Part shown: one piece after another, positions 491-24,257 of the stretch
How positions within the stretch are numbered: position 1 is the stretch's first letter
How the letters are laid out: each line of letters starts with the position of its first letter
Assembly: GCA_048938895.1 (NCBI GenBank)
Contig: JBHLLU010000058.1
Span: forward strand, 1-24,257
Source of the DNA: Promethearchaeota archaeon
Lineage (GTDB): Archaea; Asgardarchaeota; Lokiarchaeia; Sigyniarchaeales; SOKP01
Length of the DNA: 24,257 nucleotides
Direction of reading: 5' to 3'
Program-made: the position numbers and the translations under genes
Notes under the pieces: generated by a model
The model's database searches: none
Seen by the model: the letters and a program-made list of their open reading frames with translations, nothing else
What the model was told of the DNA's origin: nothing

Positions 491-3043
491 ATGAGTAAAG
501 TATCAGAATTGAATCTACCACCAGATGAAATTACGAAACAGGCCTTTGGACTTCGAAAAAATAATGAACATATCATATTGTGGCTTTTGAAGAACAATGA
601 AAGTGTAGAATGGGCGCATTTTTTGGAGGATCCTATTAGTATTCCTCAATCTACACTATCAAATTATTTAAAAGATCTTCAAGATGAAGGTTATATTGAG
701 AAAGTGAGAAGGGGGGTATATAAAATCACTTCTCGGGGTGAAACGCGATATAATGAATTATCGCAGACGAAAGATAAGAAGCGAAGTTTAAATTATCCAC
801 CTAAGGCGATAACAAGTAAAAGGGAATATGAGCATTGGATTTTATGGATGGCTTATAATAATAACTTTTTGAAATGGTCAGATTTCCTGGAGGAACCATT
901 AGCAATAAATCAATCTTCATTATCAAAAAGCATTAAGTCATTACTGAATAGGGAGGCTATAAGGAAAAACGATGATAAGGAGTATCGAATCACTCGAATC
1001 GGCAAGGCTGAATATGCTCGTATGTTGAGGACGTATGATTTAGACCGTCAGTCAATTCTTAATGAAGAAAGCAAGAGGATTGGTGAGATAACAAAAAAAA
1101 CGATAGATTTTTTTGAAAAATATGACATTACAAATTCTGATATAAAATTCCGATTTTTAAATAATGTACTAACTCTACCTTTTGAGAAATTAAAAGGGTC
1201 ACTTGATACAGAAGAGCAATTTAATAAAATCCTACTATATCTTTCAATGAATCATCCCAATCAGTATCCTGCATATATTTCAACTAATGAATTTTCAGAA
1301 AGATATAACATTAACAAATTAGACCTTGAATTTAACATTCGGAAAATTATTGAAAAAGATGTCTATCCTACAAAATTCTTTAAAATAGAGACAGGTAAGG
1401 ATAAATTATATTATTTTCAAGCGAATGAGAAGCTTGAGAAGGTCTTAAGTGCAATTACTGAGGATTATATTACTAAATTTACCTATTTAAATAAGCTATA
1501 TGAAAGTAGTTCTAGAGAAACACTTACCTTAACATTGGAATCTACAGTTGATGCGATATTGAATGAAATATGTGAAAGTCTATTTAATGAAGAACTAAAA
1601 GACTCACTGAGAGAATTTCTACCTGATTATATAAACTATTTAGCCTATAAGATGGAGACGCAAAAGAGATTGGAAGAAATTACAGATAAATTAGAAGGAA
1701 CAATTTGGCAGGAGTTTCAATATTATAGTGCTACGAATGAAACTCCCAAGAATTTAGATGAAAGTCAGGAGAATTATTACCTTTCACCAAACATATTCGA
1801 CATTTTGGATGAATCCTATATAATTCCAGAAATAGAATCCGCAGTTCAGGAAACAAAGAAAAGATTTAAAGATAAAATCGAATGGAAGGAAGCACTAGGT
1901 TATGTGAATTCGAAAATAGAGAGTGGTTTAGAACATAAAGAGTTTAAGTTATTTAAAGCAACTGTTCTCTGTCGCATTAATAAGTATACAGAAGCAATAA
2001 AATTAATTGAGGAGGAAATAGATTATGAACAATATCGAGATGACGAGGGAATATATTTAACTTCTTCTTTTATTCTTGTCTATTCGTATACTTCCTTAGG
2101 AACTGTTAATGAGGCGCTTGAAATTATTGATGAAATGTTTGAGACTTATCCTGATCATCCAATTTCACTTGCTGCAAAAGCTATAGTTTATGGATATAGT
2201 ATGATTTACGATTTTGATGTTGGTGAGGTAAACAATGATTATGTTTTAGATTTAATCGATGAAGTCATCAGAGCTGATTCTAGCATTTTGAATAAAGCAA
2301 GATATTATCAATTTAAGTCAACTATTTTGGAACAAATGAAAAAGGATGAGGAAGCTTTAGATGAAATTGAAATCGCTATGCAACTTACTGAAGATCTTGT
2401 TGAACTATACTACAGTAAATCAAAAATTCTTGCAGAGTTAGGGAGATATGATGAAGCAATGGAGGTCCTGGATGAAACTATGATACGATATCCTGACAAC
2501 CGTAAGCAGTTATTAATGCAAAAAGCTTATGTTTACAAGATGCAAGGTGATTACCAGTCTGGTTTAGATATAATTACTCAGCTTACAAAAAATTATCCAA
2601 AAGAAGTAGATTTTTACAATAATAAAGCCTATTGGCATGTATACATTTATAATCAGAAGAAGGAAATGGGAATAGAGGATGAAGAAAATAAGAAATCAGC
2701 TCTAGGAGATATAAAATTTCTAACTGAGAAAGTTCCAAACGAGGGAAATTATTTTGATTCATATGGTGAAATACTTCTGATAATTGGTGAGTATAAAGAT
2801 GCTATTAAAATGTATGAGAAAGCAATAAAAATCGAACCAAACGGTTGGTTTGTTCCAGCATCTTATTTAGGCCTTGGTAAATGTCACCAAAAACTTGGAA
2901 ATTATGAAGAGGCAGTGAAGAACCTTCAAAAAGCTCGAAAGATCGTAAGATATTGTTTCTGTCATATCAAACATAAAAAAGAGTGGATTGAAGAGATCGA
3001 ATACCATTTAAACGAAGTTAAAGAATTAATGGAAAAACCGTAG
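491..3043 (+). CDS. Tandem winged-HTH + TPR-repeat protein, putative transcriptional regulator
   Basis: Two mutually similar wHTH units (HIILWLLKNN..W.HFLEDP.SI.QSTLS..L..L..Y.IT..G and HWILWMAYNN..W.DFLEEP.AI.QSSLS..I..L..Y.IT..G), perhaps a third near aa 245-310. The C-terminal half has TPR patterns (e.g. LAELGRYDEAMEVLD, YLGLGKCHQKLGNYEEAVKNLQKA). Confidence 0.85.
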   Translation: MSKVSELNLPPDEITKQAFGLRKNNEHIILWLLKNNESVEWAHFLEDPISIPQSTLSNYLKDLQDEGYIEKVRRGVYKITSRGETRYNELSQTKDKKRSLNYPPKAITSKREYEHWILWMAYNNNFLKWSDFLEEPLAINQSSLSKSIKSLLNREAIRKNDDKEYRITRIGKAEYARMLRTYDLDRQSILNEESKRIGEITKKTIDFFEKYDITNSDIKFRFLNNVLTLPFEKLKGSLDTEEQFNKILLYLSMNHPNQYPAYISTNEFSERYNINKLDLEFNIRKIIEKDVYPTKFFKIETGKDKLYYFQANEKLEKVLSAITEDYITKFTYLNKLYESSSRETLTLTLESTVDAILNEICESLFNEELKDSLREFLPDYINYLAYKMETQKRLEEITDKLEGTIWQEFQYYSATNETPKNLDESQENYYLSPNIFDILDESYIIPEIESAVQETKKRFKDKIEWKEALGYVNSKIESGLEHKEFKLFKATVLCRINKYTEAIKLIEEEIDYEQYRDDEGIYLTSSFILVYSYTSLGTVNEALEIIDEMFETYPDHPISLAAKAIVYGYSMIYDFDVGEVNNDYVLDLIDEVIRADSSILNKARYYQFKSTILEQMKKDEEALDEIEIAMQLTEDLVELYYSKSKILAELGRYDEAMEVLDETMIRYPDNRKQLLMQKAYVYKMQGDYQSGLDIITQLTKNYPKEVDFYNNKAYWHVYIYNQKKEMGIEDEENKKSALGDIKFLTEKVPNEGNYFDSYGEILLIIGEYKDAIKMYEKAIKIEPNGWFVPASYLGLGKCHQKLGNYEEAVKNLQKARKIVRYCFCHIKHKKEWIEEIEYHLNEVKELMEKP

Positions 3044-3871: not shown

Positions 3872-4624
3872 TTATTTTTTATATCCTACTTTAATAATCA
3901 TTGAAATTGACTCATCAAAGACTTGTCCTTCGACTTGACATTTAAAGGGCATTTCTTCTGAATTAAATAATTCTGTGAAATATCCTAACCAGTAAGAGCT
4001 ATAACGCTTATTTTGTCTATGTCGAAAAAGAATATGAAACTCATCTTTATTTTCTTTAACGACATCTATTGTATGAAAGTAATTTGCTACAACCCAAACT
4101 TTTTGAATGGTGCTTATAATTTCCTCTATTGTAAGGTTTTTAAGTGGTCTTGAATCGTTATACCAAAGAATCAAATCTATAGCAACATTTTTACGCCAGG
4201 GTTTTTGTAAACTTTCTTCAGGTGCTTCTGCAGCAGCAATTAGTTGATTAAATGTTGTTTTTCCAATCAACATCATTTTCATTTCATCTCTAGCTCTTAC
4301 CCATAAATCCCTATCAAGGCTTTTTTGATCTCCAAAATATTTAACAGCGCGTTCAATAAAAGAAATATCAGATTCATTACCTTCCTTATATTTTTCAATT
4401 GTTCCACGAATTTCAGGTGAAATCGAGTTGAATTCATCATAGCACTTAATAGCGTTTCTCACTAAGTCAGAAATGGTAGTACCTTGTATTTTATATTTAT
4501 CAATTAGACTTCGAGTTTCATCGCTTACTTTGACATATATTGGCTTATCTTTTGGTTCGACTTCTTTAACTTCATTTTTATCAGCAACCTGATCGTTTTC
4601 TTTTGTAATAATTATCATCTCCAA
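3872..4624 (-). CDS. Ribbon-helix-helix regulator with C-terminal V4R-like (putative ligand-binding) domain
   Basis: KPIYVKVSDETRSLIDKY..TISDLVRNAI is RHH-like and is followed by a second degenerate copy (ISPEIRGTIEKY..DISFIERAV). The alpha/beta C-domain assignment is tentative. The start may be the ATG at 4618 or further downstream. Confidence 0.65.
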   Translation of the reverse strand: MEMIIITKENDQVADKNEVKEVEPKDKPIYVKVSDETRSLIDKYKIQGTTISDLVRNAIKCYDEFNSISPEIRGTIEKYKEGNESDISFIERAVKYFGDQKSLDRDLWVRARDEMKMMLIGKTTFNQLIAAAEAPEESLQKPWRKNVAIDLILWYNDSRPLKNLTIEEIISTIQKVWVVANYFHTIDVVKENKDEFHILFRHRQNKRYSSYWLGYFTELFNSEEMPFKCQVEGQVFDESISMIIKVGYKK

Positions 4625-4650
4625 TTTTTTTGCTAATGCATTAAGGTGAA

Positions 4651-4896
4651 TATATATCTTTATATTAATATACTTTAAGTTTATTTATCAAAGGATTAGA
4701 TCCCTTTAAGAAATATTTTGCTCATATATAGTGATATATACAGACTAATCATTACTCTTCACCAAACATTTAAAAAATTATTTATATACATATATATATC
4801 TTTATTTTTGTATTTCTATTGCTCAATCTTTTTTTGTCTGATACTTAATAGTAATAATAACATTTAAATATATCGTTATATATGATTATATACAGA
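4651..4896. promoter_or_regulatory. Repeated TATATA-N4-TATATA boxes in the divergent promoter region
   Basis: Exact copies at 4725-4740, 4783-4798 and 4877-4892, and a 1-mismatch copy at 4651-4666. Two copies are followed by CAGA. A TTTAAATA TATA box at 4863-4870 precedes the last copy. Confidence 0.45.
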
Positions 4897-4941
4897 ATAA
4901 AAAATAATCAAAAAAAAATATATTAAGATATAGAAAAATTT

Positions 4942-5112
4942 ATGAAACAATTTAAAAAAATCACTCAGAAAAAATATGATAAAAGAAGTACTACTAAAGC
5001 ATTTTGGGATGTGGCCGATAGATACACATTCGACTCTCCCGCTATATCAGTCTATAACTTATCGATTGGGGAATTCAAAACATTTAGTAATCAGTTAAAT
5101 AGAATGCCTTAA
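4942..5112 (+). CDS. Microprotein 1 (56 aa), WxxxD[RK]Y motif family
   Basis: Hand translation: MKQFKKITQKKYDKRSTTKAFWDVADRYTFDSPAISVYNLSIGEFKTFSNQLNRMP. It shares KAxWDVADxY with the next ORF, with synonymous codon changes. Confidence 0.75.
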   Translation: MKQFKKITQKKYDKRSTTKAFWDVADRYTFDSPAISVYNLSIGEFKTFSNQLNRMP

Positions 5113-5145
5113 TCCTTAATTGAAATAACAAAGAGCTAAAAAAAA

Positions 5146-5295
5146 TTGAAGAAAAACAAAAAAAAAGATAATAAATTTGTTTCTCAAGAAGAAAATCATA
5201 GTAGAGATGTTAAAAAAGCAATGTGGGATGTTGCTGATAAATATGATCTGGATTGCCTTCCAATATGGGGAAGGCATTTTATTAGATACAAATAA
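5146..5295 (+). CDS. Microprotein 2 (49 aa), WxxxD[RK]Y motif family
   Basis: TTG start. Hand translation: MKKNKKKDNKFVSQEENHSRDVKKAMWDVADKYDLDCLPIWGRHFIRYK. Confidence 0.72.
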   Translation: MKKNKKKDNKFVSQEENHSRDVKKAMWDVADKYDLDCLPIWGRHFIRYK

Positions 5296-5299
5296 GATA

Positions 5300-5440
5300 A
5301 TGATGAAAGAAATAAAGCCAGTTTGTAATAAGTTTCAGACAAGAACGCATCATAGGTTATGCGTTGATAAAAGAATTTGGAAAAATTTAGACCGATACAT
5401 AACACTTAGAACAAATGGGAGTATCGGACGTTCCATATAA
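5300..5440 (+). CDS. Microprotein 3 (46 aa), divergent WxxxD[RK]Y motif family member
   Basis: MMKEIKPVCNKFQTRTHHRLCVDKRIWKNLDRYITLRTNGSIGRSI. It starts 4 nt after the stop of microprotein 2 and is the C-terminal part of track ORF 5177..5440. Confidence 0.62.
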   Translation: MMKEIKPVCNKFQTRTHHRLCVDKRIWKNLDRYITLRTNGSIGRSI

Positions 5441-5483
5441 AATAATTATTTTTAACGAAAAAAGAAGAAAGAGGTAAGAAAAA

Positions 5484-5942
5484 ATGGCATATATGATTCC
5501 TATTATAGCAAATAGAAAAAATTATCGTAGATCTAGCCCTGGAGCTGTGATAGCAGGATTAATTATTTTTTTAGTCTTCGGGATATTATTTTTCCTGTTT
5601 TTAAATCGATCTTGGGTTTTTGGATTTAATTTTAGTATAGTATTTTGGATTGGGGGTTTTATGATATTTTTTGCAATAATTTTAGCAATTACTGCCGCTA
5701 TTAGTGCATCATCTGTGAGTAAAAACATTAAACCAAGGAATGGAGACCCTCCTAAACAACAAATAATACTTCAAAAACCGGTAAGTCAAATAAACCCTTA
5801 TAAATCGTCTAATATAGAAAAAATTAACCTAAAAACTCCTGAAAATAATCTTTTAACTGAGATAATTAATTATTGCAGTTTTTGTGGTGCGAAGAAGGAA
5901 TTAGATGCAATATACTGTCATATGTGTGGTTCCAAATTTTAG
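5484..5942 (+). CDS. Two-TM membrane protein with C-terminal zinc ribbon
   Basis: GAGGT ribosome-binding site, two hydrophobic helices, and C-terminal CSFCG..CHMCG. Confidence 0.85.
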   Translation: MAYMIPIIANRKNYRRSSPGAVIAGLIIFLVFGILFFLFLNRSWVFGFNFSIVFWIGGFMIFFAIILAITAAISASSVSKNIKPRNGDPPKQQIILQKPVSQINPYKSSNIEKINLKTPENNLLTEIINYCSFCGAKKELDAIYCHMCGSKF

Positions 5943-6077
5943 AAATTTTCAATCATAAATTTTACCAAAAATATTAAAATAAGCATTATGATAAAGTCGA
6001 AAAGAATATTAAGATACGCTCGTTGGAAGAGGAAGAGATACATTGCTGAATTTTTAATTGTGGTAATTGGATTATTG

Positions 6078-6980
6078 ATGACAACGACAGGTTTTTTCTT
6101 TACTAATTTTTATGATATTTTCTTCAGTATTTGTTTAGGATTATTTATTGGTGGCATTATTATGTCTATTATTTCGACAGTTCTTGCTGAGATATCAACT
6201 CACGATCTTCAGGCTACAGATCATATAGATCACGGAGATTTTGGACATGTCGATCATATAGATCATGGAGATTTTGGATATGTTGATCATATCGATCACG
6301 GAGATTTTGGGCATGTTGATCATATCGATCATGGAGATTTTGGGCATGTTGATCATATCGATCATGGAGATTTTGGACATGTCGATCATGTAGACCATGG
6401 AGATTTTGGACAGGTTGACCACATCGATCATATAGACCATGTGGATCATATAGACCATGGGGATTTTGGACAGGTAGACCATATCGATCATATAGACCAT
6501 GCTGATCATGACTATGATACAAGAGATTCCAATATTTTCAATGAGACAACTCCAACACCATTCATGTTAATTTTTTCTACATCTTTATTGCTATTTGGAA
6601 TATCTGGAATTTTATTTTATTATATTTTTGATAATAATGTTAGATTTCTCATATTTTTCGCTGCTATTAGTGTAACTTTTTTAACAACAAAATTAATTTC
6701 TACTACTTGGAAAAAGATAGCAAAGTCAAGATTTTATGATATTACAGCTACTAAAAATTTAATTGGACAAAAAGGAGTTATTGTTTTAGATGTCGATAAT
6801 AAGGGCGGAGTTGTTAAAATTAAATCCAACAATCCGATGAAATTCGAAAAAATTCATGTAAAACCATTACACGTAGATTCTTTCTTCGAGAAAGGGGAAG
6901 AAGTATATATTTGCGATATTAAAGATGGATTTTTATTAGTGGATAAAAAATTAAGCTCAATTCGATATAGAAGGAGATAA
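6078..6980 (+). CDS. NfeD-like (YuaF/YqiJ-type) membrane protein with His/Asp repeat loop and C-terminal OB-fold
   Basis: TM - His/Asp loop - P.M..F..LL.FG..G TM pair - LIGQKGVI..GGVVKI..KGEEVYI..I...LLV (NfeD C-domain), directly upstream of an SPFH gene. The start is uncertain (ORF open from 5988; ATG at 6078 preferred). Confidence 0.85.
   Translation: MTTTGFFFTNFYDIFFSICLGLFIGGIIMSIISTVLAEISTHDLQATDHIDHGDFGHVDHIDHGDFGYVDHIDHGDFGHVDHIDHGDFGHVDHIDHGDFGHVDHVDHGDFGQVDHIDHIDHVDHIDHGDFGQVDHIDHIDHADHDYDTRDSNIFNETTPTPFMLIFSTSLLLFGISGILFYYIFDNNVRFLIFFAAISVTFLTTKLISTTWKKIAKSRFYDITATKNLIGQKGVIVLDVDNKGGVVKIKSNNPMKFEKIHVKPLHVDSFFEKGEEVYICDIKDGFLLVDKKLSSIRYRRR
6219..6512 (+). repeat. Intragenic 33-bp tandem repeat encoding DHIDHGDFGHV
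   Basis: Seven 11-aa units plus DHx triplet runs; 25 His in 98 aa. Confidence 0.95.
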
Positions 6981-7071: not shown

Positions 7072-8241
7072 ATGTTGTTCCAAGAAATAACAATTTGGGT
7101 TACCTGGTTAGTAATAATAGTGATTATAATAGCTTTTCTCTTTTTAATTTTCATGGCGACGAGGTATAGAAAATTCAAAACAAACCAATTTGTGATACAT
7201 TTACGAAATGGAAAAGTTAAACATGCTGGATTAGGAGGAAGCTTATGGTTATTACCTCTAATTGACGAATATTTAGTAATTCCTACAACTAGTATTCAGA
7301 CAACCTTAGAAGCTCATGAACAAGTAGTTTCAATGGAATATCAAAATATTTCGATAGTTGGAATGTTGATTTGGAAAGTAATAGATCCTGAGAGAGCATT
7401 TAGTGCGGTTTCATGGAATCCTAGAGACGAAAATTATGTGGAGAAAATATTAAAGAATGCAGCAGAAGCAATTATACGTACTACATGTGCAAATATGCCA
7501 ATCGAAAAAATCATTCGAGAGCGTCGAGAAATAATTAATATTGTAAGTAAAGAAATTCATGAATTAACAGCAGATTGGGGTGTTGTAATAGAATCAATTG
7601 AAATCCGTGAAGTGAATATATTAGAGCCAGGATTGAAAAAGAATATGGAAGCTGTGAAACAAGCAATCGAAGCTAGAAAAGCACGAATAGCAAACGCAGA
7701 GTCTGAAAGAGAATCGAGAATAAGAGAATTAGAAGTTCAGAATGAAATAGGAATCCAGAATCAGCAAGTGGAAAAAGAAATTGAATTAAGAAGGAAAGAT
7801 AAAGAAATAGCTATTGCAGAACAGGAAAGAGAACGTAAGAAGATTGAAGCAGACGGTGAGAGGCAGAAGAAGATAATCGAAGCTGATGCGAGTGCCCAAC
7901 AAATTAAAAGAAAGTTAATCGCTCAAGCTGAAGGTGAAGCCGAAAATATAAAACAACAAATGCTTGCTCAAGCAGAAGGATTTCAAAAACAAGTTGAAGC
8001 AATGGGCAGTGCTGATGAAAGGTTCTTAGCTGTTCAACTAACTAACATTTTACCTGAAATCTTTAAGAATCTGAACCCTGATAAAATGTTCATCATGGGA
8101 GATGGCAATGAAGCATTTAGTTCTCTTTCTCGAGCTATATTACCGTTCTTACAGCTTTTACCAGAGTATTCTGATAAGATCAAAGATTTTTTTAATAATG
8201 GTGGCGCAAAAAAGTTAAAAGAAGTTTTAGTTAAGAAATAA
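7072..8241 (+). CDS. SPFH/band-7 (flotillin-like) protein
   Basis: GGAGGT RBS, N-terminal TM, SPFH core (WKVIDP..A, IIRERREI, WGVVIESIEIREV), and a flotillin-type AEAE/AEGEAE coiled coil. Confidence 0.92.
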   Translation: MLFQEITIWVTWLVIIVIIIAFLFLIFMATRYRKFKTNQFVIHLRNGKVKHAGLGGSLWLLPLIDEYLVIPTTSIQTTLEAHEQVVSMEYQNISIVGMLIWKVIDPERAFSAVSWNPRDENYVEKILKNAAEAIIRTTCANMPIEKIIRERREIINIVSKEIHELTADWGVVIESIEIREVNILEPGLKKNMEAVKQAIEARKARIANAESERESRIRELEVQNEIGIQNQQVEKEIELRRKDKEIAIAEQERERKKIEADGERQKKIIEADASAQQIKRKLIAQAEGEAENIKQQMLAQAEGFQKQVEAMGSADERFLAVQLTNILPEIFKNLNPDKMFIMGDGNEAFSSLSRAILPFLQLLPEYSDKIKDFFNNGGAKKLKEVLVKK

Positions 8242-8294: not shown

Positions 8295-9176
8295 TTGATT
8301 AAGAATATCGAAAAAAGGTTAATAGAAGGTAATTTAAATTTTAAATCGAAGGTTATGCAAGATTCCAAAAGCATTCCAATCAATGAAATTATCCCAAAGT
8401 ATCCTGTACTAGTTATTACGTGCATCGATCCCAGAATAGATATTTTTCAAATTTTTCAATTAAATCCGGGGGATGTATTTATATTCAGAAATGCGGGAAA
8501 TGTCTATACCAATGATATGTTAAGATCTTTATTGGTTAGTATTATTGAATTCGACATTAAATATATTGTAGTTTTGGGACATTTAGACTGTGGAATGACT
8601 AAAATCAACTTAAAAGAATACAGGGATAAATTACCATCTGAATTCCTTTCTCAGCTATCAAAGTATTATGCAGTAGTTCTTTCAGAATTAAACAATTTTT
8701 TCAAACCATTCAATAATGAAGTTGAAAATATAAAACAGCAGATCAAAAATTTAAATACAATTAAAAAATTTTTCCCTGAAATTGAAATTACAGGTATGTT
8801 ATATGATGTTAAAACAGGATTAGTTTTTGAATATGATCTATTTAAAGATTATAAACCCATTGAGAACTTCGAAAAAAAGTATAAGGAAATGATTATTCAT
8901 AAAAAAAATCAATTCCAAAATTATTTAGACAGTCTTGAAGCTGAAAAAAAATTGTCTGACAATATTAAATGTTCCCAGAAAGAAAGTGAACTAAATGAAG
9001 TTGAACCATGTTCTATTCAACAAGAAAGCCAGGAAATGGAAGATTCTTCTGTCTATAAAAATGGGCAATCTGAAGATATTAATTTGAAATCAATTATATC
9101 AAAAATTACAATTCCTAAAATCCAATTCCCAAAAGTTAAAGTCTATATTCCTAATATTATTAGAAAGAAAAATTAA
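8295..9176 (+). CDS. Beta-class carbonic anhydrase family protein with C-terminal extension
   Basis: Zn ligands CIDPR and HLDCG, plus RNAGN and G.LYDVKTG; GAGGT RBS before a TTG start. Confidence 0.9.
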   Translation: MIKNIEKRLIEGNLNFKSKVMQDSKSIPINEIIPKYPVLVITCIDPRIDIFQIFQLNPGDVFIFRNAGNVYTNDMLRSLLVSIIEFDIKYIVVLGHLDCGMTKINLKEYRDKLPSEFLSQLSKYYAVVLSELNNFFKPFNNEVENIKQQIKNLNTIKKFFPEIEITGMLYDVKTGLVFEYDLFKDYKPIENFEKKYKEMIIHKKNQFQNYLDSLEAEKKLSDNIKCSQKESELNEVEPCSIQQESQEMEDSSVYKNGQSEDINLKSIISKITIPKIQFPKVKVYIPNIIRKKN

Positions 9177-12803: not shown

Positions 12804-13373
12804 TCAAGTTAGTGTTAAATTATTTCGTCCAGTTTTAGTCAAAATTTCTTGTACTAAGTATCTGAATATTAATGGAATGTTCTCCCCGGTTTTTGCAGAA
12901 CACTCTATATAATCAAAAAATTTATAAGAGCTCATAAATCTTAAGGCTTCCTCTTTTGAACAAACTCTTTCCTGTTCGAGATCCAATTTGTTTCCCACTA
13001 AAATAAATGGGACAATTCTTGAAACTTTTTGAAATTCAACTATCCAATTATTTAACTTATCTAAACTTTTCATACTTGTTAGGTCAAACATAAAAACTGC
13101 ACCTGATGACCCTCTAGCATAAGAGGGGATAAGAAACATAAAATTTTGCTGACCACCAAAATCCCAGATTTGAAGTGTAATTTTCCCATTTACAAGTTCA
13201 AGAAATTTTATATGAATAGTTGCACCTAATGTGGCTTGTATATTTTCATGAAATTCATTTGTAAGATACCGATCAACTAATGAGGTTTTACCAACTCCTG
13301 CATTTCCAAAAACACAGATTTTAAAAGCCAATTCTATAGATCCTTGCTCTAAATTTTCGCTGTTCCTTAACAT
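12804..13373 (-). CDS. Rab-like small GTPase (Ras superfamily)
   Basis: G1 GNAGVGKT, G2 ATLG, G3 WDFGGQ, G4 NKLD, G5 SAK; no C-terminal prenylation cysteines. Confidence 0.93.
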   Translation of the reverse strand: MLRNSENLEQGSIELAFKICVFGNAGVGKTSLVDRYLTNEFHENIQATLGATIHIKFLELVNGKITLQIWDFGGQQNFMFLIPSYARGSSGAVFMFDLTSMKSLDKLNNWIVEFQKVSRIVPFILVGNKLDLEQERVCSKEEALRFMSSYKFFDYIECSAKTGENIPLIFRYLVQEILTKTGRNNLTLT

Positions 13374-15993: not shown

Positions 15994-18039
15994 CTACATA
16001 ATTGATTTAAGAATTTGTTTCTGACTTTCTGAACCTTTTCCTTTATCTTTAGGATTTTTCAAGTTTTTGATTGCAGACTCAATTGTTTCAAGTTTAATTG
16101 AATATTTCTCAAATAATTCCGTAAAACTGTTTATATCAATATCATTATTTTCATACAATATTTTTAATTGTTTTAAGGTTCGACCAATTCCTGCTTTATT
16201 ATTTTTTAATTCTTCGATCTTATTGGAGTTAATTGTAATTTCTGACATTAAGTTTTTGTAACGTAAATAGGCATCAAAGTTTAAATCAGATTGTTTATAT
16301 TTTGTAAGAAAGTTAGTAGTTCTTGGAACAAAGGGAGCAAGGTTTTCTGGAATTATGATCAAGGGTTCTGGATCTTGTATCTCTAAAGCCTGTGCATCAG
16401 AAATTATCTCAACATCATTTTCGATTATATTATTGTTTACAATAGATAAATTAGTCCGTAGGCTTTCTTTTTCCATATCATTGACATCCTCAAATGTGTT
16501 TAACATTGTTTCCCATATTTCCTCAGCTTTCATATAATAGTAGTTTGCTTTCTTCTGTAAATCTTCGATTTTATCTTTATTTTCATGTTCAGGTGAAATT
16601 TTTAAAAGATACTTTGCTTTTAAGTGACATGCTCTTCCAATGTCATAATTATATTGAGCTTTAAATTGAAATTCTTTTTTCTTAGTATACTTTCTTAGAA
16701 ATGCTAGTCTTTTAGTTAGGGCACTTAAGCCTGCAGACAAATTTGCTGCCATCGAGAAATTACCCTTTTTTTCTTCGCTAATAGTGGCTAAATTCTGAGC
16801 AAGTATTCGAGCTTCTTCTGAATTCAATTCAAGATTATCAACTGTTAATGCAATTCCTTTATCTTCTTGCCGAGTACAAGCAGCACTAAAATACGCTGCA
16901 GTTTTAAACATTTTACTGCATTCAACCATTGCTATTATTGCTTTTTCCCAGGAATTTTCTTCTTCAAATTTAGTAGAAAGGTAGGAATATGCTTTTGCTG
17001 AAATCCATAGTACCCTAGCACACTCAAAAATTAAATCCCATATTTTAATTTCGCTTTTTGCTATAGGGTCATAAAATAATGGAGTTATTTCTAATTCTTT
17101 AAAGATCTTTATTTGGCTTTGAGTTTTATAATTAACATTAAGGATTTTTATATATTCTAAAATATTGTTGAGTTCTGAGAAGGAAAAATCTTCATTACGT
17201 TCTAAAATAGTTTCCAACTTCTTAATGCTGAAATGGTAGAAACGGATCCTTTGCATTGTTGCTGGTGGGAAAAATGTTTGCAATTCAGGGGATTTTTCTG
17301 TATCTACTTTAACTAAATTTGCTTTTACCTCCTTTGCTTCTACTTCCTTTCTCTCTGATGGTTTTTTAGGGACTTTAATATCTATAATTGGTTTTACAAG
17401 AGGTTTAATGCTAATAGATGGTTTCTTTATCGGTTTATAAACAGGAAGAGGTTCTTCAACTTGAGTTTCTACATTTTGCTTGATTGGCGTAAATGGCTCT
17501 AATTTCTGCAGAGAACTCTTGGCGTTAAATTTTACAAATCCTAAAGGTTGAGATTGATCATTTACCTTCAAACTTGCGGTTCTACTAGCCATTTCTTCGT
17601 TCCTCATACTTTCTAAATACTTCTTTGCTATCTGAATATACTTTTCTGCTTTTGCAGTACCTATATCATTATGTTTTGATAACTCCTCAATGCTTAAAGA
17701 TGCAATTTTTTTTATGGAACTAATGGGGATTCTTTTTTTATCAGTATTAGTTGATTCAGTCTTAGTTGATTCAGTGTTAGTTTTTACTGATTTTGTGGTT
17801 TCATGTGCAGTTCCTTTGTTAATTATGTTATATACTTTTGATCTTGCATCAATCCGTTGAATATGCTTATTTGCAAACTGGATATAGGCTCTGGCTGCCG
17901 AAACTTTGATACCATCAATAACTAATAAGTCTTCTATACTTGAAGATGCTAGTTTTTCTATGGAATCAATTCCTATTTCTTTTAACTTTTGAGCGGTCCT
18001 TTTCCCAATACTTTGAGAGACGTTTAATATGGATGTCAT
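15994..18039 (-). CDS. Multidomain protein: N-terminal HhH modules, Pro/Lys linker, Bro1-like helical domain, C-terminal steadiness-box-like hairpin
   Basis: IGKRTAQKLKEIGIDSIEKLA..DLLVIDGI is an HhH module, with a partial repeat at aa 105-142. The CDS is secure; the Bro1 and SB calls are by-eye inference. Confidence 0.7.
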   Translation of the reverse strand: MTSILNVSQSIGKRTAQKLKEIGIDSIEKLASSSIEDLLVIDGIKVSAARAYIQFANKHIQRIDARSKVYNIINKGTAHETTKSVKTNTESTKTESTNTDKKRIPISSIKKIASLSIEELSKHNDIGTAKAEKYIQIAKKYLESMRNEEMASRTASLKVNDQSQPLGFVKFNAKSSLQKLEPFTPIKQNVETQVEEPLPVYKPIKKPSISIKPLVKPIIDIKVPKKPSERKEVEAKEVKANLVKVDTEKSPELQTFFPPATMQRIRFYHFSIKKLETILERNEDFSFSELNNILEYIKILNVNYKTQSQIKIFKELEITPLFYDPIAKSEIKIWDLIFECARVLWISAKAYSYLSTKFEEENSWEKAIIAMVECSKMFKTAAYFSAACTRQEDKGIALTVDNLELNSEEARILAQNLATISEEKKGNFSMAANLSAGLSALTKRLAFLRKYTKKKEFQFKAQYNYDIGRACHLKAKYLLKISPEHENKDKIEDLQKKANYYYMKAEEIWETMLNTFEDVNDMEKESLRTNLSIVNNNIIENDVEIISDAQALEIQDPEPLIIIPENLAPFVPRTTNFLTKYKQSDLNFDAYLRYKNLMSEITINSNKIEELKNNKAGIGRTLKQLKILYENNDIDINSFTELFEKYSIKLETIESAIKNLKNPKDKGKGSESQKQILKSIM

Positions 18040-19237: not shown

Positions 19238-22200
19238 TTAAAAAACAAAAAATATCGCAGTAACAGATAATGTGAGAAAAGCTGCAACGATTACTTTCTT
19301 TAACTTACTTTTTTCTTTCTTATTTAATTTCTCATAATATCGACTTTTTGTTAATTTCACGGTAATAGGAATCATTGTTAAAACACCCGCGGTCGAGGTA
19401 ATAAAACCAATTGGATTTGATATAATTGCACTAGGTGGTTGATATTTAACCACTGTAATATCTTGGTAATTTATATTTCCAAGTGAGTCCATTGAGTAGA
19501 ATCGGATTGTAATGATAGATCCTCTAGTTAAGTTATCCCAAACGTTTTGCCATAATATTTCATCAATTTTCCCATAGATCCGGACCCCGCTAGTACCTGT
19601 AAATTGTATGGAGGACTCAGTTCCTATAATAGTATACCAACAGCTATCTATATCATTTTCGTCAAAAAGAGTAAGTTCAAAATATGGAGAATTTCTATCG
19701 ATCTTCTGATTTGTAGTTGGTAAATGTATTGTGATATTAGGTCCAATAGTATCTTTCAACAAAGTTATCATATTTAGATTATTTAGATTCCCTAATGTGT
19801 CATTAGCATAAAATTCTAATAAAAATGCTCCTTGAGGTAAAAGCATCCATATGGAAGAGTTAAGATTTTGAGTGATGTTATCTGTGATATAAATTCTTCT
19901 CGAATTAACGATATACCATATTTCGTCTAAATTAGGTTCAATAATTGTAAGATTAATAAATGGCGCCGAAGCATAATATGTTTGACTAAGAGGAGAATTT
20001 ACGATAATTAATGGTGGATCTGGGTCTTTATTGATGATTACCTCATCGTATCCGATTTTCCCAATTGAATCATTGATATAAAACCTAATTGTAACGCTTT
20101 CATATCCAAAATCACTCCATGCTGCTTGGTTTATTGTTCCACTTAATCCAGAAAAAGTATAATTCGTCAATCCATTATCTAACGTATACCAGGTGTCCTG
20201 AATATCAGAACCAGATTTATAAATTATAAAATTGGGGGCATCAATTCCGAATATTTCGTCATGTCCTGGAGAAGTGATTGTAATAACAGGTGCAAAAATA
20301 TTTTTTCTTACAGTAATATCGCTGTAACCTAAATTTCCTGCTAGATCATTTGCATTAAACCTAATAGTTACAGTTCCATTACCAAATTTATCCCATTCTG
20401 TTTGGTTGATTGTTCCAATAGTTCCTGTAAATATAAAATTCTGCGATTCACCTAGTAAAGTATACCAAGTAGTATTTAGATGAGCTTCTAAGATTGAAAT
20501 CTCAAAATCTGGAGCAACCGCTCCAAATAATTCATTTGGTTGAGGGAGACTAATATTTATCTCCGGTACATAAGTATCTTTAATCAAAGCGAGTGTTATG
20601 GAATTATTTATATTCCCAAGAGAATCCTCTGCAATAATCTGTAGTACAAACATTCCTTCTGGTATCAGAGACCAAATAAAAGGATTCATAAGCACTTCAG
20701 TGTTGTTTGGAATGTATTGTAAATAAGGAAGGAATTCGTATCTAATTGAATCCAGGTTAACATCAAAAGCTGTGATATTAAGAACTGGCCTTGAATTCCA
20801 ATATGTATTGTTTAAAGGTGAATTAATAGTAATTAAGGGTGCTAGCGTATCTTTCAATATAGTAAGTGTATAAGTATTATTTAAATTTCCAGCAGAATCA
20901 TTTGCATAAATCGAAACTTGAAATTCTCCTTGGTCTAACTCATCCCACATAGTTTGATCAAAAGCTTCAGGACCCAATTCTAAAATAAATTTAGTACCCA
21001 TTACAGAATACCATATTGTATCAAGATTTACATCGGATGCTAAAATGTTCATGAAAGGAGGATCAGAATAGTATGTATTGTTAAGTGGGGCATTAATAGT
21101 TATAAAGGGAGTTATTGTATCCTTATTAAGAGTTCTATTTACAGCTGAGCTAGTATAGCCAAAACTATCATTTGCATAAAATTCAACAGTAAAAATGCCA
21201 TCAGTTATACTATCCCATAAGGAAGATTCCAAGATTTGTTCTGAATTGTTAGCCAACTCTATTGAAGTCGTCCCTATTCTATACCAAATGGTATGGAGAT
21301 TAGGATCATCTGAAATTACTCGAAATATAGGTGGTGAATTATGATATGAATTTTCCTCTGGTAAAATTATTTCAACAATGGGAGCAAGAGTATCCTTATA
21401 TATGGTAATAAATGTATTGTTTGGATGACCGAAACTATCGAAAGCTGAAATACTTACTGTGAAAGGTCCTTGTGGGAGTGAATCCCAAATACCTTGATCA
21501 AGAAGTTCTTCTGTATTATTTTCTAACCAAAAAGTACTTCCCATTACTGTGTAAGTAAGGGAGTTAAAATTGGGGTCAAGAACAGTTATGTTAATTGGTG
21601 GTGGAGAATTATAATAAGCTTGATCAGAGGGAGTGTTTATTATTAATTGGGGCGCAAGAGTGTCTTTATAGAATGTCAAATTAAGAGGATCGTTTATGTA
21701 TCCTAGCATATCTTCAGCAAATATTTCAATCACAAACTTTCCTTGAGGAAGACTATCCCAAATAGAACTATCAAGAGTAATATCTGAATCGTTTGGTAAT
21801 GTTATATTTGTTTCCCCCACTCTATACCATATCCTCAGAAGGTTTGGTTCATATACTGATATGTGAAAACTTGGTTCCTCAGCACAATATAAACCATCCC
21901 CAGAGGGATTTATGTATGTAATCGTTATTTCAGGGGGATCAGGATCTTTTCTGATGGTAACCTCATCAAATCCTATTTTACCAAGGGAATCATTTATATA
22001 GAAGAAAATGGTGACACTCTCAAAATCAAACAAGTCCCACGCGTCTTGATCTATCGTACCACTTAAGCTATAGAACGTATAATTAGTTAATCCACCATCT
22101 AACGTATACCAAGTTGTATTTAATGCAACTCCAGATTTATAAATTGTAAAATTCGGAGCATCAACACCAAATAAATCATTATCATAGGGAGAAACTATAT

Positions 22201-24257
22201 TTATTACTGGAGCGAATATATTTTTTCGAACAGTAATCGCCCTAAAACCAAGATTGCCTAAGGTATCATTTGCATAAAACATGATCGACACCGTTCCATT
22301 ACCAAAATTGTCCCATGCAGATTGATTTATTAGACCACTTAACCCTGAAAAGGTATAATTAGTTATACCATCATCTAAAGTATACCAAGTCTGGTCTAAA
22401 TTATCTTCAATTATTGAAATAAAAAAATTTGGTGCAATATCTCCATATAATCCATTCGGTTTCGGACTATTAATCGAAATAGAAGGGCTTCTAACATCCT
22501 TATAGAGCAGTAATTTATACATATCATTTAAATTTCCAGCAGAATCGTTTGCATAAAATTGTATCTCAAATTCACCTTCTATTGACAAAAGATCCCAAAT
22601 GGCAGTATCTAATGGTTGATTAGTATTATTTGTTAGAACAACAATAGTAGTTCCTACTCGATACCATAAAGTATGAAGATAAGAATCTATAACAGTAGCT
22701 CTAATAGTTGGTGGTAATTTCCAATAGGTGTTATTATATGGGGAATTTATAACTAAATTTGGTGTTAATATATCTTTGTAGAGTGTTAGTGTGAAAGTAT
22801 CATTAATATGACCAAAAGTGTCATTCGCATAAAAGTGAACTTGAAAATCTCCTTCTCCAGGGAGAGAATTCCAAATTGATAAATTAAATTCTTCCAGGGT
22901 ATTATTTGATATTGAAACGTTAATATTGTTTACATTATACCAAATAGAATCAAAATTTGGGTCAAAAGCGGAAAGATTAAAAGATGGAGGTGAATTCCAG
23001 TAGGTATTATTTAGGGGTGTATTTATAGTTAATAGTGGTGCCATCGTGTCTTTGTATAGTGTTAAACTTAATTCAACGTAATGATCTAATTCATCATAAC
23101 ATGAGAATAAAATATGAAACTCCCCTTGATCTAAGGCATTCCATCTATTTGCCTCTAATTGAACTTCTGAGTTATTATCTAATGGATATGTATATCCAGA
23201 TATACTGTAAAATAGAAAACACTTAGTTAAATCAAAAATAGTTATATTAATTCGAGGGCGTATATTCCAGTATGTATTATTAACTGGAGTATTAAACACT
23301 AATATCGGATCCATTGTATCTTTCGTAACAGTCACGCTATTAGAACCTACATTCCCTGCGTCATCCTCAGCATAAAAAATGATTCCTACCAACCCATCTG
23401 GTTGACTATCCCACTCGGTGGAATTGATAGTGCCTGTTTCTGATATGATATAGATAGAAGTTCCAGTATTAAGCGTATACCAATATCGGTATAAATTCAC
23501 TTCAGAAATGGAAATGTCATAAACAGGCGCTTCTTCATATGCTCCTATACCTGGAGCTGTAATTGTGATCACAGGGTCCACTGTATCTTTGGTAACAGTC
23601 ATGCTATCAGAACCTATGTGTCCTGCATCATCCTCAGCATAAAAGAAAATCTCCACTGTCCCCTCTGGTTGGTTATCCCACTCAGTTGAATTGATGGTGC
23701 CTGTCTCTGATGTAATATAAAAAGGTGAACCGCCATTAAGCGTATACCAATATTGAAACAAGTTTGCTTCAGTAATGGTAATATCATAATTTGGTGCCCC
23801 ATCATACACCCCCACTACAGGAGCTGTAATTGCGATCACAGGATCCACCGTATCTTTGGTAGCAGTTACGCTATCAGATCCTATATGTCCCGCATCGTCC
23901 TCAGCGTAAAAAATGATTTCAACCAAGCCATCTGGTTGACTATCCCACTCGGTGGAATTGATAGTACCTGTTTCTGATATGATATAGATAGACGGACCAC
24001 CATTAAGCGTATACCAATATTGAAACAAGTTTGCTTCAGTAATAGAAATGTCATAACTAGGTGGTCCATCATACACCCCCACTACAGGAGCTGTAATTGC
24101 GATCACAGGATCCACCGTATCTTTGGTAACAGTCACGCTATCAGATCCTATATGTCCCGCATCGTCCTCAGCGTAAAAAATGATTTCAACCAAGCCATCT
24201 GGTTGGCTAGCCCACTCAGTGGAATTAATGTTACCTGTCTCCGATGTGATATAAATA
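19238..24257 (-). CDS. Giant surface/extracellular protein with about 18 tandem ~90-aa Ig-like repeats and a C-terminal two-TM anchor; 5' end outside the window
   Basis: The frame stays open beyond 24193 to the window edge (IYITSETGNINSTEWASQPDGLVE). Repeat pattern KDT..P.I.I.SP..WY..W..F.I.FYAND..G; many N-x-S/T sequons; two hydrophobic helices flank a basic loop at the C-terminus. Confidence 0.9.
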   Translation of the reverse strand, partial: IYITSETGNINSTEWASQPDGLVEIIFYAEDDAGHIGSDSVTVTKDTVDPVIAITAPVVGVYDGPPSYDISITEANLFQYWYTLNGGPSIYIISETGTINSTEWDSQPDGLVEIIFYAEDDAGHIGSDSVTATKDTVDPVIAITAPVVGVYDGAPNYDITITEANLFQYWYTLNGGSPFYITSETGTINSTEWDNQPEGTVEIFFYAEDDAGHIGSDSMTVTKDTVDPVITITAPGIGAYEEAPVYDISISEVNLYRYWYTLNTGTSIYIISETGTINSTEWDSQPDGLVGIIFYAEDDAGNVGSNSVTVTKDTMDPILVFNTPVNNTYWNIRPRINITIFDLTKCFLFYSISGYTYPLDNNSEVQLEANRWNALDQGEFHILFSCYDELDHYVELSLTLYKDTMAPLLTINTPLNNTYWNSPPSFNLSAFDPNFDSIWYNVNNINVSISNNTLEEFNLSIWNSLPGEGDFQVHFYANDTFGHINDTFTLTLYKDILTPNLVINSPYNNTYWKLPPTIRATVIDSYLHTLWYRVGTTIVVLTNNTNQPLDTAIWDLLSIEGEFEIQFYANDSAGNLNDMYKLLLYKDVRSPSISINSPKPNGLYGDIAPNFFISIIEDNLDQTWYTLDDGITNYTFSGLSGLINQSAWDNFGNGTVSIMFYANDTLGNLGFRAITVRKNIFAPVINIVSPYDNDLFGVDAPNFTIYKSGVALNTTWYTLDGGLTNYTFYSLSGTIDQDAWDLFDFESVTIFFYINDSLGKIGFDEVTIRKDPDPPEITITYINPSGDGLYCAEEPSFHISVYEPNLLRIWYRVGETNITLPNDSDITLDSSIWDSLPQGKFVIEIFAEDMLGYINDPLNLTFYKDTLAPQLIINTPSDQAYYNSPPPINITVLDPNFNSLTYTVMGSTFWLENNTEELLDQGIWDSLPQGPFTVSISAFDSFGHPNNTFITIYKDTLAPIVEIILPEENSYHNSPPIFRVISDDPNLHTIWYRIGTTSIELANNSEQILESSLWDSITDGIFTVEFYANDSFGYTSSAVNRTLNKDTITPFITINAPLNNTYYSDPPFMNILASDVNLDTIWYSVMGTKFILELGPEAFDQTMWDELDQGEFQVSIYANDSAGNLNNTYTLTILKDTLAPLITINSPLNNTYWNSRPVLNITAFDVNLDSIRYEFLPYLQYIPNNTEVLMNPFIWSLIPEGMFVLQIIAEDSLGNINNSITLALIKDTYVPEINISLPQPNELFGAVAPDFEISILEAHLNTTWYTLLGESQNFIFTGTIGTINQTEWDKFGNGTVTIRFNANDLAGNLGYSDITVRKNIFAPVITITSPGHDEIFGIDAPNFIIYKSGSDIQDTWYTLDNGLTNYTFSGLSGTINQAAWSDFGYESVTIRFYINDSIGKIGYDEVIINKDPDPPLIIVNSPLSQTYYASAPFINLTIIEPNLDEIWYIVNSRRIYITDNITQNLNSSIWMLLPQGAFLLEFYANDTLGNLNNLNMITLLKDTIGPNITIHLPTTNQKIDRNSPYFELTLFDENDIDSCWYTIIGTESSIQFTGTSGVRIYGKIDEILWQNVWDNLTRGSIITIRFYSMDSLGNINYQDITVVKYQPPSAIISNPIGFITSTAGVLTMIPITVKLTKSRYYEKLNKKEKSKLKKVIVAAFLTLSVTAIFFVF
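23310..24257 (-). repeat. Near-identical 267-bp intragenic tandem repeat (about 3.5 copies visible)
   Basis: GGAGCTGTAATTG recurs at 23553, 23820 and 24087; ATCATACACCCCCACTACAGG at 23801 and 24068. Confidence 0.92.

Follow-up and report, generated by a model that had tools for sequence, protein, structure and literature searches.

The window, meaning the whole stretch of 24,257 nucleotides analysed here (Promethearchaeota archaeon, assembly GCA_048938895.1, contig JBHLLU010000058.1), carries three small open reading frames (ORFs) in tandem, P1, P2 and P3, and comparison with related genomes indicates that they belong, in all likelihood, to a real family of protein-coding genes. This family of short basic microproteins is new to the libraries that were searched and narrow in range, and it is unusually tightly tied to a single operon, which encodes an SPFH (flotillin-like) scaffold protein. 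The array is flanked on one side by a divergent gene for a protein of 250 amino acids (aa) and on the other by the genes for a 152-aa transmembrane protein with a C-terminal zinc ribbon (TM/Zn-ribbon protein), a 330-aa NfeD-like membrane protein and the 389-aa SPFH protein. Hardly any work exists on small proteins in Asgard archaea, whose genes are missed or given wrong starts by annotation.

Three small genes in tandem and their family

P1 (4942-5112, + strand) starts with ATG and yields a 56-aa basic microprotein of type A with a net charge of +6 and no cysteine. P2 (5146-5295, + strand) starts with TTG and yields 49 aa; it is a divergent copy and its coding status is less certain. P3 (5300-5440, + strand) starts with ATG and yields a 46-aa basic microprotein of type B with a net charge of +8 and cysteines at residues 9 and 21. 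An earlier reading of this DNA, made from the letters without database searches (the sequence-only reading), had placed three + strand ORFs and three ten-residue motifs here; direct inspection bore out the ORFs and the motifs, which begin at 4996, 5215 and 5369. The ORF of P3 is nested in a longer open frame (5177-5440), for which 5300 or 5303 is the predicted true start, while 5177 and 5207 were rejected. Two of the three ORFs had also been said to be absent from the annotation and the third to be mis-started. The calls for this contig in a public protein collection include one of 56 aa identical to P1 and one of 77 aa that equals P3 plus a non-conserved N-terminal extension, and none for P2, so that one gene is missing and one mis-started, while P1 was called.

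The source genome has a size of 4.65 Mb and a GC content of 31%, and the reduced motif [FMILV]W...D[RK]Y occurs only nine times in its 9,298,562 six-frame residues, three of the nine falling within this 500-base stretch and on one strand. Reading the listing by eye, we found a lysine three residues before the tryptophan (W-3) in the P1, P2 and P3 copies alone. Of 3000 Markov simulations of 580 bases with the same composition, 0.6-2.6% produced two or more + strand ORFs that did not overlap and were 45 aa or longer, and 0-0.03% produced three or more. The GC fraction, which is coding-like, is 0.26-0.32 across the three ORFs versus 0.165-0.20 in the adjacent upstream intergenic DNA, and the gaps from P1 through P2, P3 and the 152-aa gene to the 330-aa gene measure 33, 4, 43 and 45 bases, a spacing that is operon-like.

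P1 and P3 are very probably coding, as the comparison of orthologues suggests. Those of P3, with a length of 45-46 aa, were found in genomes G004, G062 and G067 and on two metagenome contigs; the proposed frame is free of stops in all five, and none of the remaining five frames is. Within type B, the ratio of nonsynonymous to synonymous differences per site (pN/pS) is 0.24-0.62 in the proposed frame, with Fisher p<0.05 in four of six pairs, compared with 0.52-1.25 and no significant pair when the same alignment is read in the two shifted frames. The corresponding substitution ratios (dN/dS, method NG86) are 0.15-0.54 for orthologue pairs of type B, 0.30 for P1 and its G004 orthologue, which differ by in-frame indels, 0.49 for the type C pair of G062 and G067, and 0.21 for two paralogues in G019; being drawn from related species with about 25 synonymous sites per estimate, no single value is strong, but the values agree. 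All orthologue pairs of types A, B and C thus lie between 0.15 and 0.54, and together with the in-frame orthologues, the pN/pS values and the family alignment they support the view of the sequence-only reading that the three small coding genes are related and combine a peptide motif under selection with tails that vary. A third 56-aa orthologue of type A is present in the public protein collection, a hidden Markov model (HMM) built with P1 left out scores P1 at 29.4 bits, and conservation in type B spans the full length, 19 of its 46 columns being invariant.

For P2, the evidence leans towards a coding gene with clearly less assurance. Its dN/dS relative to P1 is 0.63, and in simulations of neutral drift with 0.4-0.9 substitutions per site, only 3-7% of runs would keep its frame open. 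The local DNA alignment of P1 and P2 scores 37, against a mean of 23.6 for shuffled sequences (standard deviation 3.6, maximum 37), and since this similarity is weak, no recent duplication took place.

The region shared by the family is longer than the ten-residue motif and comprises, according to the alignments, a Lys-rich N-terminus, C-x12-C and then K/R-x2-W-x3-D/E-x-Y/F. In the 16-row family alignment, whose residues were counted by eye and which leaves three extra members outside the counts, the tryptophan is present in all 16 members and is followed at W+4 by aspartate in 15 and glutamate in one, and at W+6 by tyrosine (11), phenylalanine (2), asparagine (2) or aspartate (1). A lysine or arginine stands at W-3 in 14 of the 16, and cysteines stand at W-6 in 13 and at W-18 in 12, the pair being 12 residues apart; histidine positions are not conserved. 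Neither P1 nor P2 carries either cysteine of the family pattern, and it is due to this loss that their flanks looked unrelated. The claim that the flanks do not align held for the tails, which differ between types and define them, but not for the N-terminal halves, which align to the wider family pattern. We distinguish type A (56 aa, e.g., P1), type B (45-46 aa, e.g., P3, conserved to the last residues), type C (44-54 aa) and a divergent type of 77-78 aa, in which the tryptophan is replaced by glutamine. All 17 members considered have an isoelectric point of 9.3-11.0 and a net charge of +4 to +13, and none is hydrophobic. An AlphaFold2 (AF2) model of P3 from a 13-row alignment consists of a single helix (residues 18-38) with a mean predicted local distance difference test score (pLDDT) of 70, and the K-x2-W-x3-D-x-Y core lies on this predicted helix. 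A proline directly before the stop codon ends three of three type A members, three of five full-length type B members, both remnants in G018 and the copy in G251. Counted from the alignment, about 11 to 28 residues separate the conserved Y position from the stop, depending on the type.

The statement of the sequence-only reading that the motif belongs to no recognised family stood up to all five protein libraries. Pfam gave nothing above cut-off for P1, P2, P3 or five further members, NCBIfam matched none of 16 members, and in PHROGs the best E value was 0.021, each family being matched by only one of the 16. The best match among Protein Data Bank (PDB) sequences had an E value of 0.21, the ESM Atlas returned no usable match for the microproteins, and Rfam gave no match at E<=1. 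Kinship with the N-terminal region of the 250-aa neighbour (hhalign probability 0.3%) and with the W-x3-D-containing N-terminus of the 330-aa protein (1.3%) was rejected. Haloarchaeal one-domain zinc-finger micro-proteins carry two C(P)XCG-type pairs; unlike these, our family has two cysteines 12 apart, absent in four of 16 members, and not four ligands in two CxxC-type pairs, and with no sequence match to them membership was dismissed. The two groups nevertheless resemble each other as small, basic, Cys-containing archaeal proteins that annotation is prone to omit, the haloarchaeal ones being described as shorter than 70 aa, often basic, Cys-containing and often missed (PMC6562870). Searches of the literature on small proteins and small ORFs of Lokiarchaeota and other Asgard archaea and on archaeal flotillin, NfeD and upstream ORFs brought up no paper on this family; they did not extend to supplements, which possibly hold small-ORF lists.

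Distribution and site of the array

Twelve proteins of 44-77 aa matched the family in a collection of 5.8 billion proteins, some of them deposited as 'hypothetical protein'. Among 1.84 billion representative proteins, 11 matches were obtained at E<=0.001, comprising eight clear members, one doubtful protein of 108 aa and two repeat artefacts. On this scale the family is tiny, its real members numbering about 15. The artefacts, the repeat proteins P0013 and P0018, were dismissed, and the 108-aa P0017, considered as a longer form of the family, was excluded as doubtful after its locus search yielded a Bacteroidales metagenome-assembled genome at 37% identity and short Pseudomonas matches. Seven of 400 genomes of the phylum match, all from one family, with six in this genus and one (G251) in another. 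A profile search of 54 genomes of the genus gave matches in seven. Five of these, namely the present genome (G000), G004, G019, G062 and G067, have the match at the same site and G018 has it elsewhere; the match in G010 (E 0.0077, three stops) was dismissed as noise. A viral origin was also considered; 182 pattern matches were obtained in IMG/VR and none was confirmed. The searches of IMG/VR and of metagenome-contig loci used a 5-row type B alignment, and since a 46-residue profile cannot reach far, absence here means not found with this query and not absent.

Related loci were anchored on the divergent 250-aa neighbour, and those of 19 relatives were fetched. The spacer between the 250-aa gene and the 152-aa gene measures about 335 bases in most loci (up to about 545) and contains no family ORF, whereas in G000, G019 and G004 it reaches 690-860 bases and holds small ORFs carrying the same core. 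All copies that are intact occupy one site, bounded by the 250-aa gene and the TM/Zn-ribbon gene, namely in G000, G004, G019, G062, G067 and G251 and on two metagenome contigs, so a search for arrays at this position in relatives, as suggested by the sequence-only reading, succeeded in six genomes and two contigs. G251, from the other genus, has one copy at this site. Both metagenome contigs share the order of G067, which is type C, type B, 152-aa gene and 77-aa paralogue.

In G067 and on L051, the paralogue of 77-78 aa, basic and divergent, separates the TM/Zn-ribbon gene from the NfeD-like gene. Its ORFs (L025 716-952, - strand; L051 1678-1911, + strand) match the profile weakly (E 7.4e-4), keep the C-x12-C and have Q in place of W; the window has no such ORF.

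Upstream of P1, an AT-rich promoter-like block (ATAACATTTAAATATAT...) with its leader (4857-4941, + strand) is common to all relatives in an alignment of 10 intergenic regions and presumably acts as a promoter; it includes a TATA-like stretch at 4863-4873. Upstream blocks are also common to four microprotein units. In 'empty' genomes, the leader runs directly into the ribosome binding site (RBS) and ATG of the TM/Zn-ribbon gene, and it is exactly there that the array begins. At about 4925-4944 and 5470-5486, similar short A-rich strings (AAGAAAA..ATG) stand before the ATG of the 152-aa gene and, in relatives, before that of the first microprotein; loss of the DNA between direct repeats of this kind could be the reason why the 'empty' sites are so clean.

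In a tree of the 250-aa neighbour (23 rows, excluding genomes without a fetched locus), G000, G019 and G004 form one clade with the empty G002 (support 94/93), G062 and G067 branch near the base without resolution, and G251 falls outside. This single-gene tree with its midpoint root suggests that the array is old and was repeatedly lost. In G019, the duplicated microprotein unit takes in its upstream block, and the array evolves through tandem duplication, divergence and frequent loss. Most relatives keep the operon without the array, and therefore the operon works without the microproteins.

G018 harbors two copies of the operon leader plus a type B ORF at unrelated places (L026 1300-1620 and L032 1480-1620), both of which keep pieces of the leader as well as the RBS and first bases of the 152-aa gene. 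One has a frameshift in an A-run (A7 for A6) and the other is without its 5' part; this makes them decayed duplicates of the present locus rather than contexts in their own right. The 250-aa gene gave no match in G018.

Possible role and competing explanations

Our leading proposal, held tentatively and with rather less than even confidence, is that P1, P3 and probably P2 are translated as soluble, basic and largely helical microproteins serving as dispensable accessory parts of the membrane module. Their position behind the conserved promoter makes co-transcription with the operon probable; they would be transcribed as its leading cistrons, with the TM/Zn-ribbon protein, the NfeD-like membrane protein and the SPFH scaffold following. 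Working in trans, the microproteins would be dispensable subunits with an accessory or adaptor function. Their conserved central helix would dock onto a component of the membrane module, candidate surfaces being the side of the TM/Zn-ribbon protein that faces the cytoplasm or, in the NfeD-like protein, the acidic His/Asp repeat. That the acidic repeat offers a surface for the +8 peptide is speculation, and the role of trans-acting partners of the module, argued by analogy, is possible though doubtful. Docking motifs, regulator ligands and SPFH modulators, the functions put forward in the sequence-only reading, likewise stay conjectural. A complex prediction for P3 and the 152-aa protein, both entered as alignments, scored under the mark and counts neither for nor against binding.

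By analogy, the nearest described system appears to be the pspA-ydjGHI (samGHI) operon of Bacillus subtilis, in which the TM zinc-ribbon protein YdjG, the second membrane protein YdjH and the Band 7 protein YdjI recruit PspA to the membrane (PMC9239133, PMC8581546); PMC13713150 also treats this operon. In both operons, the first cistron encodes a soluble product and is followed by genes for a TM zinc-ribbon protein, another membrane protein and a Band 7/SPFH protein, in this order. The two differ in that the first cistron here is a basic peptide of 44-56 aa and not PspA of about 220 aa, and in that the N-terminus of the SPFH protein here, as read from the translation, includes a hydrophobic segment of its own. 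PspA_IM30 gave no match above cut-off in this genome.

Several results weigh against the accessory-subunit proposal. The docking role in trans is based on position and analogy only, and the likeness to pspA-ydjGHI is drawn from gene order and domain types, compared with the published description (PMC9239133). Family matches are lacking in 47 of the 54 genomes of the genus, and 15 of the 18 syntenic loci first examined (those with the 152-aa gene in the fetched DNA, the window's own counted) have no family ORF. No Shine-Dalgarno (SD)-like sequence precedes P1, P2 or P3, as read from the sequence, whereas one is present before the 152-aa gene. The Cys pair is missing in a quarter of the aligned members (4/16), the fold model of P3 has only middling confidence (pLDDT 70, 13 rows), and helix amphipathicity is not significant for P1 and P3. 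P2 is the weakest member: it has only a TTG start, a leave-out HMM gives it only 13-17 bits, no orthologue was found in related genomes, and it is an insertion specific to G000. The motif is thus conserved in frame in relatives, as the sequence-only reading supposed, for P1 and P3, but not for P2.

The main rival explanation takes the three as cis-acting leader ORFs, whose translation, possibly with pausing of the nascent chain, sets the flow of ribosomes to the TM/Zn-ribbon gene via termination-reinitiation or remodelling of a short spacer, the released peptides being without a role. Their location fits, directly behind the conserved promoter in the operon leader and with the last ORF stopping only 22-45 nt before the next ATG, as do the dispensability and variable copy number of the array. 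TnaC, SecM and SpeFL, which are bacterial regulatory leader or arrest peptides, are likewise short ORFs in operon leaders with a conserved Trp/Asp motif and frequent Pro-stop endings, and W-x3-D is reminiscent of key residues in the TnaC leader of E. coli. However, the distance between motif and stop is not fixed, and a spread of about 11 to 28 residues is at odds with a motif that has to sit at a set point of the ribosome tunnel. Selection acts along the whole length of type B, one paralogue lies between two downstream genes and hence outside the leader, and two or three diverged tandem copies are unneeded for a leader, so that we regard this explanation as unlikely. In a bolder form of it, which seems very unlikely, the family would have arisen de novo from the A-rich leader of the SPFH operon of Lokiarchaeia, and its members, with their W-x3-D cores and frequent Pro-stop ends, would be nascent-peptide sensors that are coupled to translation and gate the membrane-scaffold genes. 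We know of no arrest-type leader peptides in archaea, and these, if the idea is true, would be the first to be described there.

It is rather unlikely that the microproteins are small nucleic-acid-binding regulators which, with or against the 250-aa regulator, tune the operon by binding its AT-rich palindromic promoter or the mRNA. They adjoin a divergent putative regulator and conserved AT-rich palindrome-like blocks, and in charge and size they resemble small DNA-binding proteins, such as the Arc/CopG ribbon-helix-helix (RHH) proteins of about 45 aa, likewise basic; the segment before the tryptophan can even be read by eye as a strand followed by a helix. Yet high charge alone is unspecific, and no DNA-binding family was matched in Pfam, PHROGs, NCBIfam or PDB sequences. 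The AF2 model, a single helix, is neither ribbon-helix-helix nor helix-turn-helix, and the microproteins are unrelated to the N-terminal region of the neighbour; with no Pfam RHH match, this single helix and the hhalign probability of 0.3% to the neighbour, RHH membership was rejected. Young, weakly selected or decaying ORFs without function, arisen from the A-rich leader, would account for the patchy distribution and frequent loss, for the decayed remnants in G018 and for Lys-rich N-termini that are A-runs in the DNA, and would be most apt for P2 with its TTG start, its lack of any orthologue found and its dN/dS of 0.63 to P1. Purifying selection on types A, B and C, with frames open across species at dS 0.4-1.2, and the copy at the same site in a second genus argue against them, as does the rarity with which the P2 frame survives neutral drift, and for the family as a whole we consider this quite unlikely. 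Least probable of all, and highly improbable in our view, are a DNA or RNA element (an operator or structured leader) in place of a peptide, or precursors of ribosomally synthesized and post-translationally modified peptides (RiPPs). The regulatory-region location and the short motif speak for them, but substitutions are mostly synonymous or conservative and in one frame only, the nucleotide similarity between copies is weak, and no Rfam match was obtained. RiPP precursors were dismissed after a Pfam scan of 20 window ORFs (the ORFs at 491-3043, 15994-18039 and 19238-24193 lying outside it) found no domain of a modifying enzyme, protease or transporter; the microproteins moreover show no core-like C-terminal tail rich in Cys, Ser or Thr. 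The sequence-only reading had also named precursor peptides, which found no recognisable peptide-modifying enzyme among these ORFs to go with them.

As the family is present in some close relatives and absent in others, it offers a natural experiment on small accessory subunits in the membrane-scaffold systems of the archaeal relatives of eukaryotes. Peptides that dock on the scaffold, if they do, would provide handles for pulling down the complex, and peptides acting in cis would represent a new type of archaeal gene control.

Operon neighbours and other genes of the window

The gene of the 152-aa membrane protein (5484-5942, + strand) begins 43 nt after the P3 stop, with the SD-like sequence AGAGGT before its ATG. 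Its zinc ribbon gave sub-threshold Pfam matches, and residues C131, C134, C145, H146 and C148 are invariant in 13 orthologues. The 330-aa membrane protein (5988-6980, + strand) contains a His/Asp-rich repeat and is NfeD-like by position only: it scores 15.1 bits with Pfam NfeD at a cut-off of 29.1, so that membership, with PF01957 below its gathering score, was not accepted. A six-frame search of the genome with PF01957 gave nothing at E<=1, and the C-terminal 91 aa of the protein matched no PDB sequence. The 389-aa protein (7072-8241, + strand) is a SPFH/Band 7 (flotillin-like) protein, with PF01145 at 95.5 bits (E 4.9e-27), above the gathering score, and its gene is one of three Band_7 genes in the genome, as confirmed by a six-frame search. 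The NfeD-SPFH neighbourhood named in the sequence-only reading is therefore firm in its SPFH half and weak in its NfeD label.

The long His/Asp-rich repeat of the 330-aa gene extends over 6195-6520, with units like DHIDHGDFGHV. In other species, the orthologues have a repeat of the same His type or one that is purely acidic (D-x-D-V), showing no link to the presence of the array, and the reverse strand of the repeat gives spurious ORFs of 102-104 aa. A beta-carbonic anhydrase gene (8295-9176, + strand; Pro_CA, E 1.6e-22) follows the SPFH gene after 53 bases on the same strand and possibly belongs to the same transcription unit.

The divergent 250-aa gene (3872-4624, - strand) is 72-85% identical across the genus and matches no Pfam family; read by eye, the N-terminus of its product may be RHH-like. 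A paralogue with 37% identity is located elsewhere in the genome, on contig C71. The AF2 model of the protein (pLDDT 56) and its Foldseek matches (TM-score<=0.55, mostly designed proteins) are too weak to use; TRAPP Bet3-type and H-NOX chains are among the weak matches to the C-terminal beta-alpha-beta part, also at TM-scores<=0.55. These matches would fit, tentatively, a V4R-like small-molecule-binding domain. Between the divergent genes (4625-4860), alternating-AT palindrome-like blocks (e.g., TATATATACATATATATATC) are conserved across 10 species and are candidate operators for the 250-aa protein.

Further along, the window encodes a Ras-family small GTPase (12804-13373, - strand; Pfam Ras, E 5.3e-42), which is typical of Asgard genomes. 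It also contains an ORF for 850 aa (491-3043, + strand) and a very large one (19238-24256, - strand) of at least 1651 aa, which runs off the end of the window.

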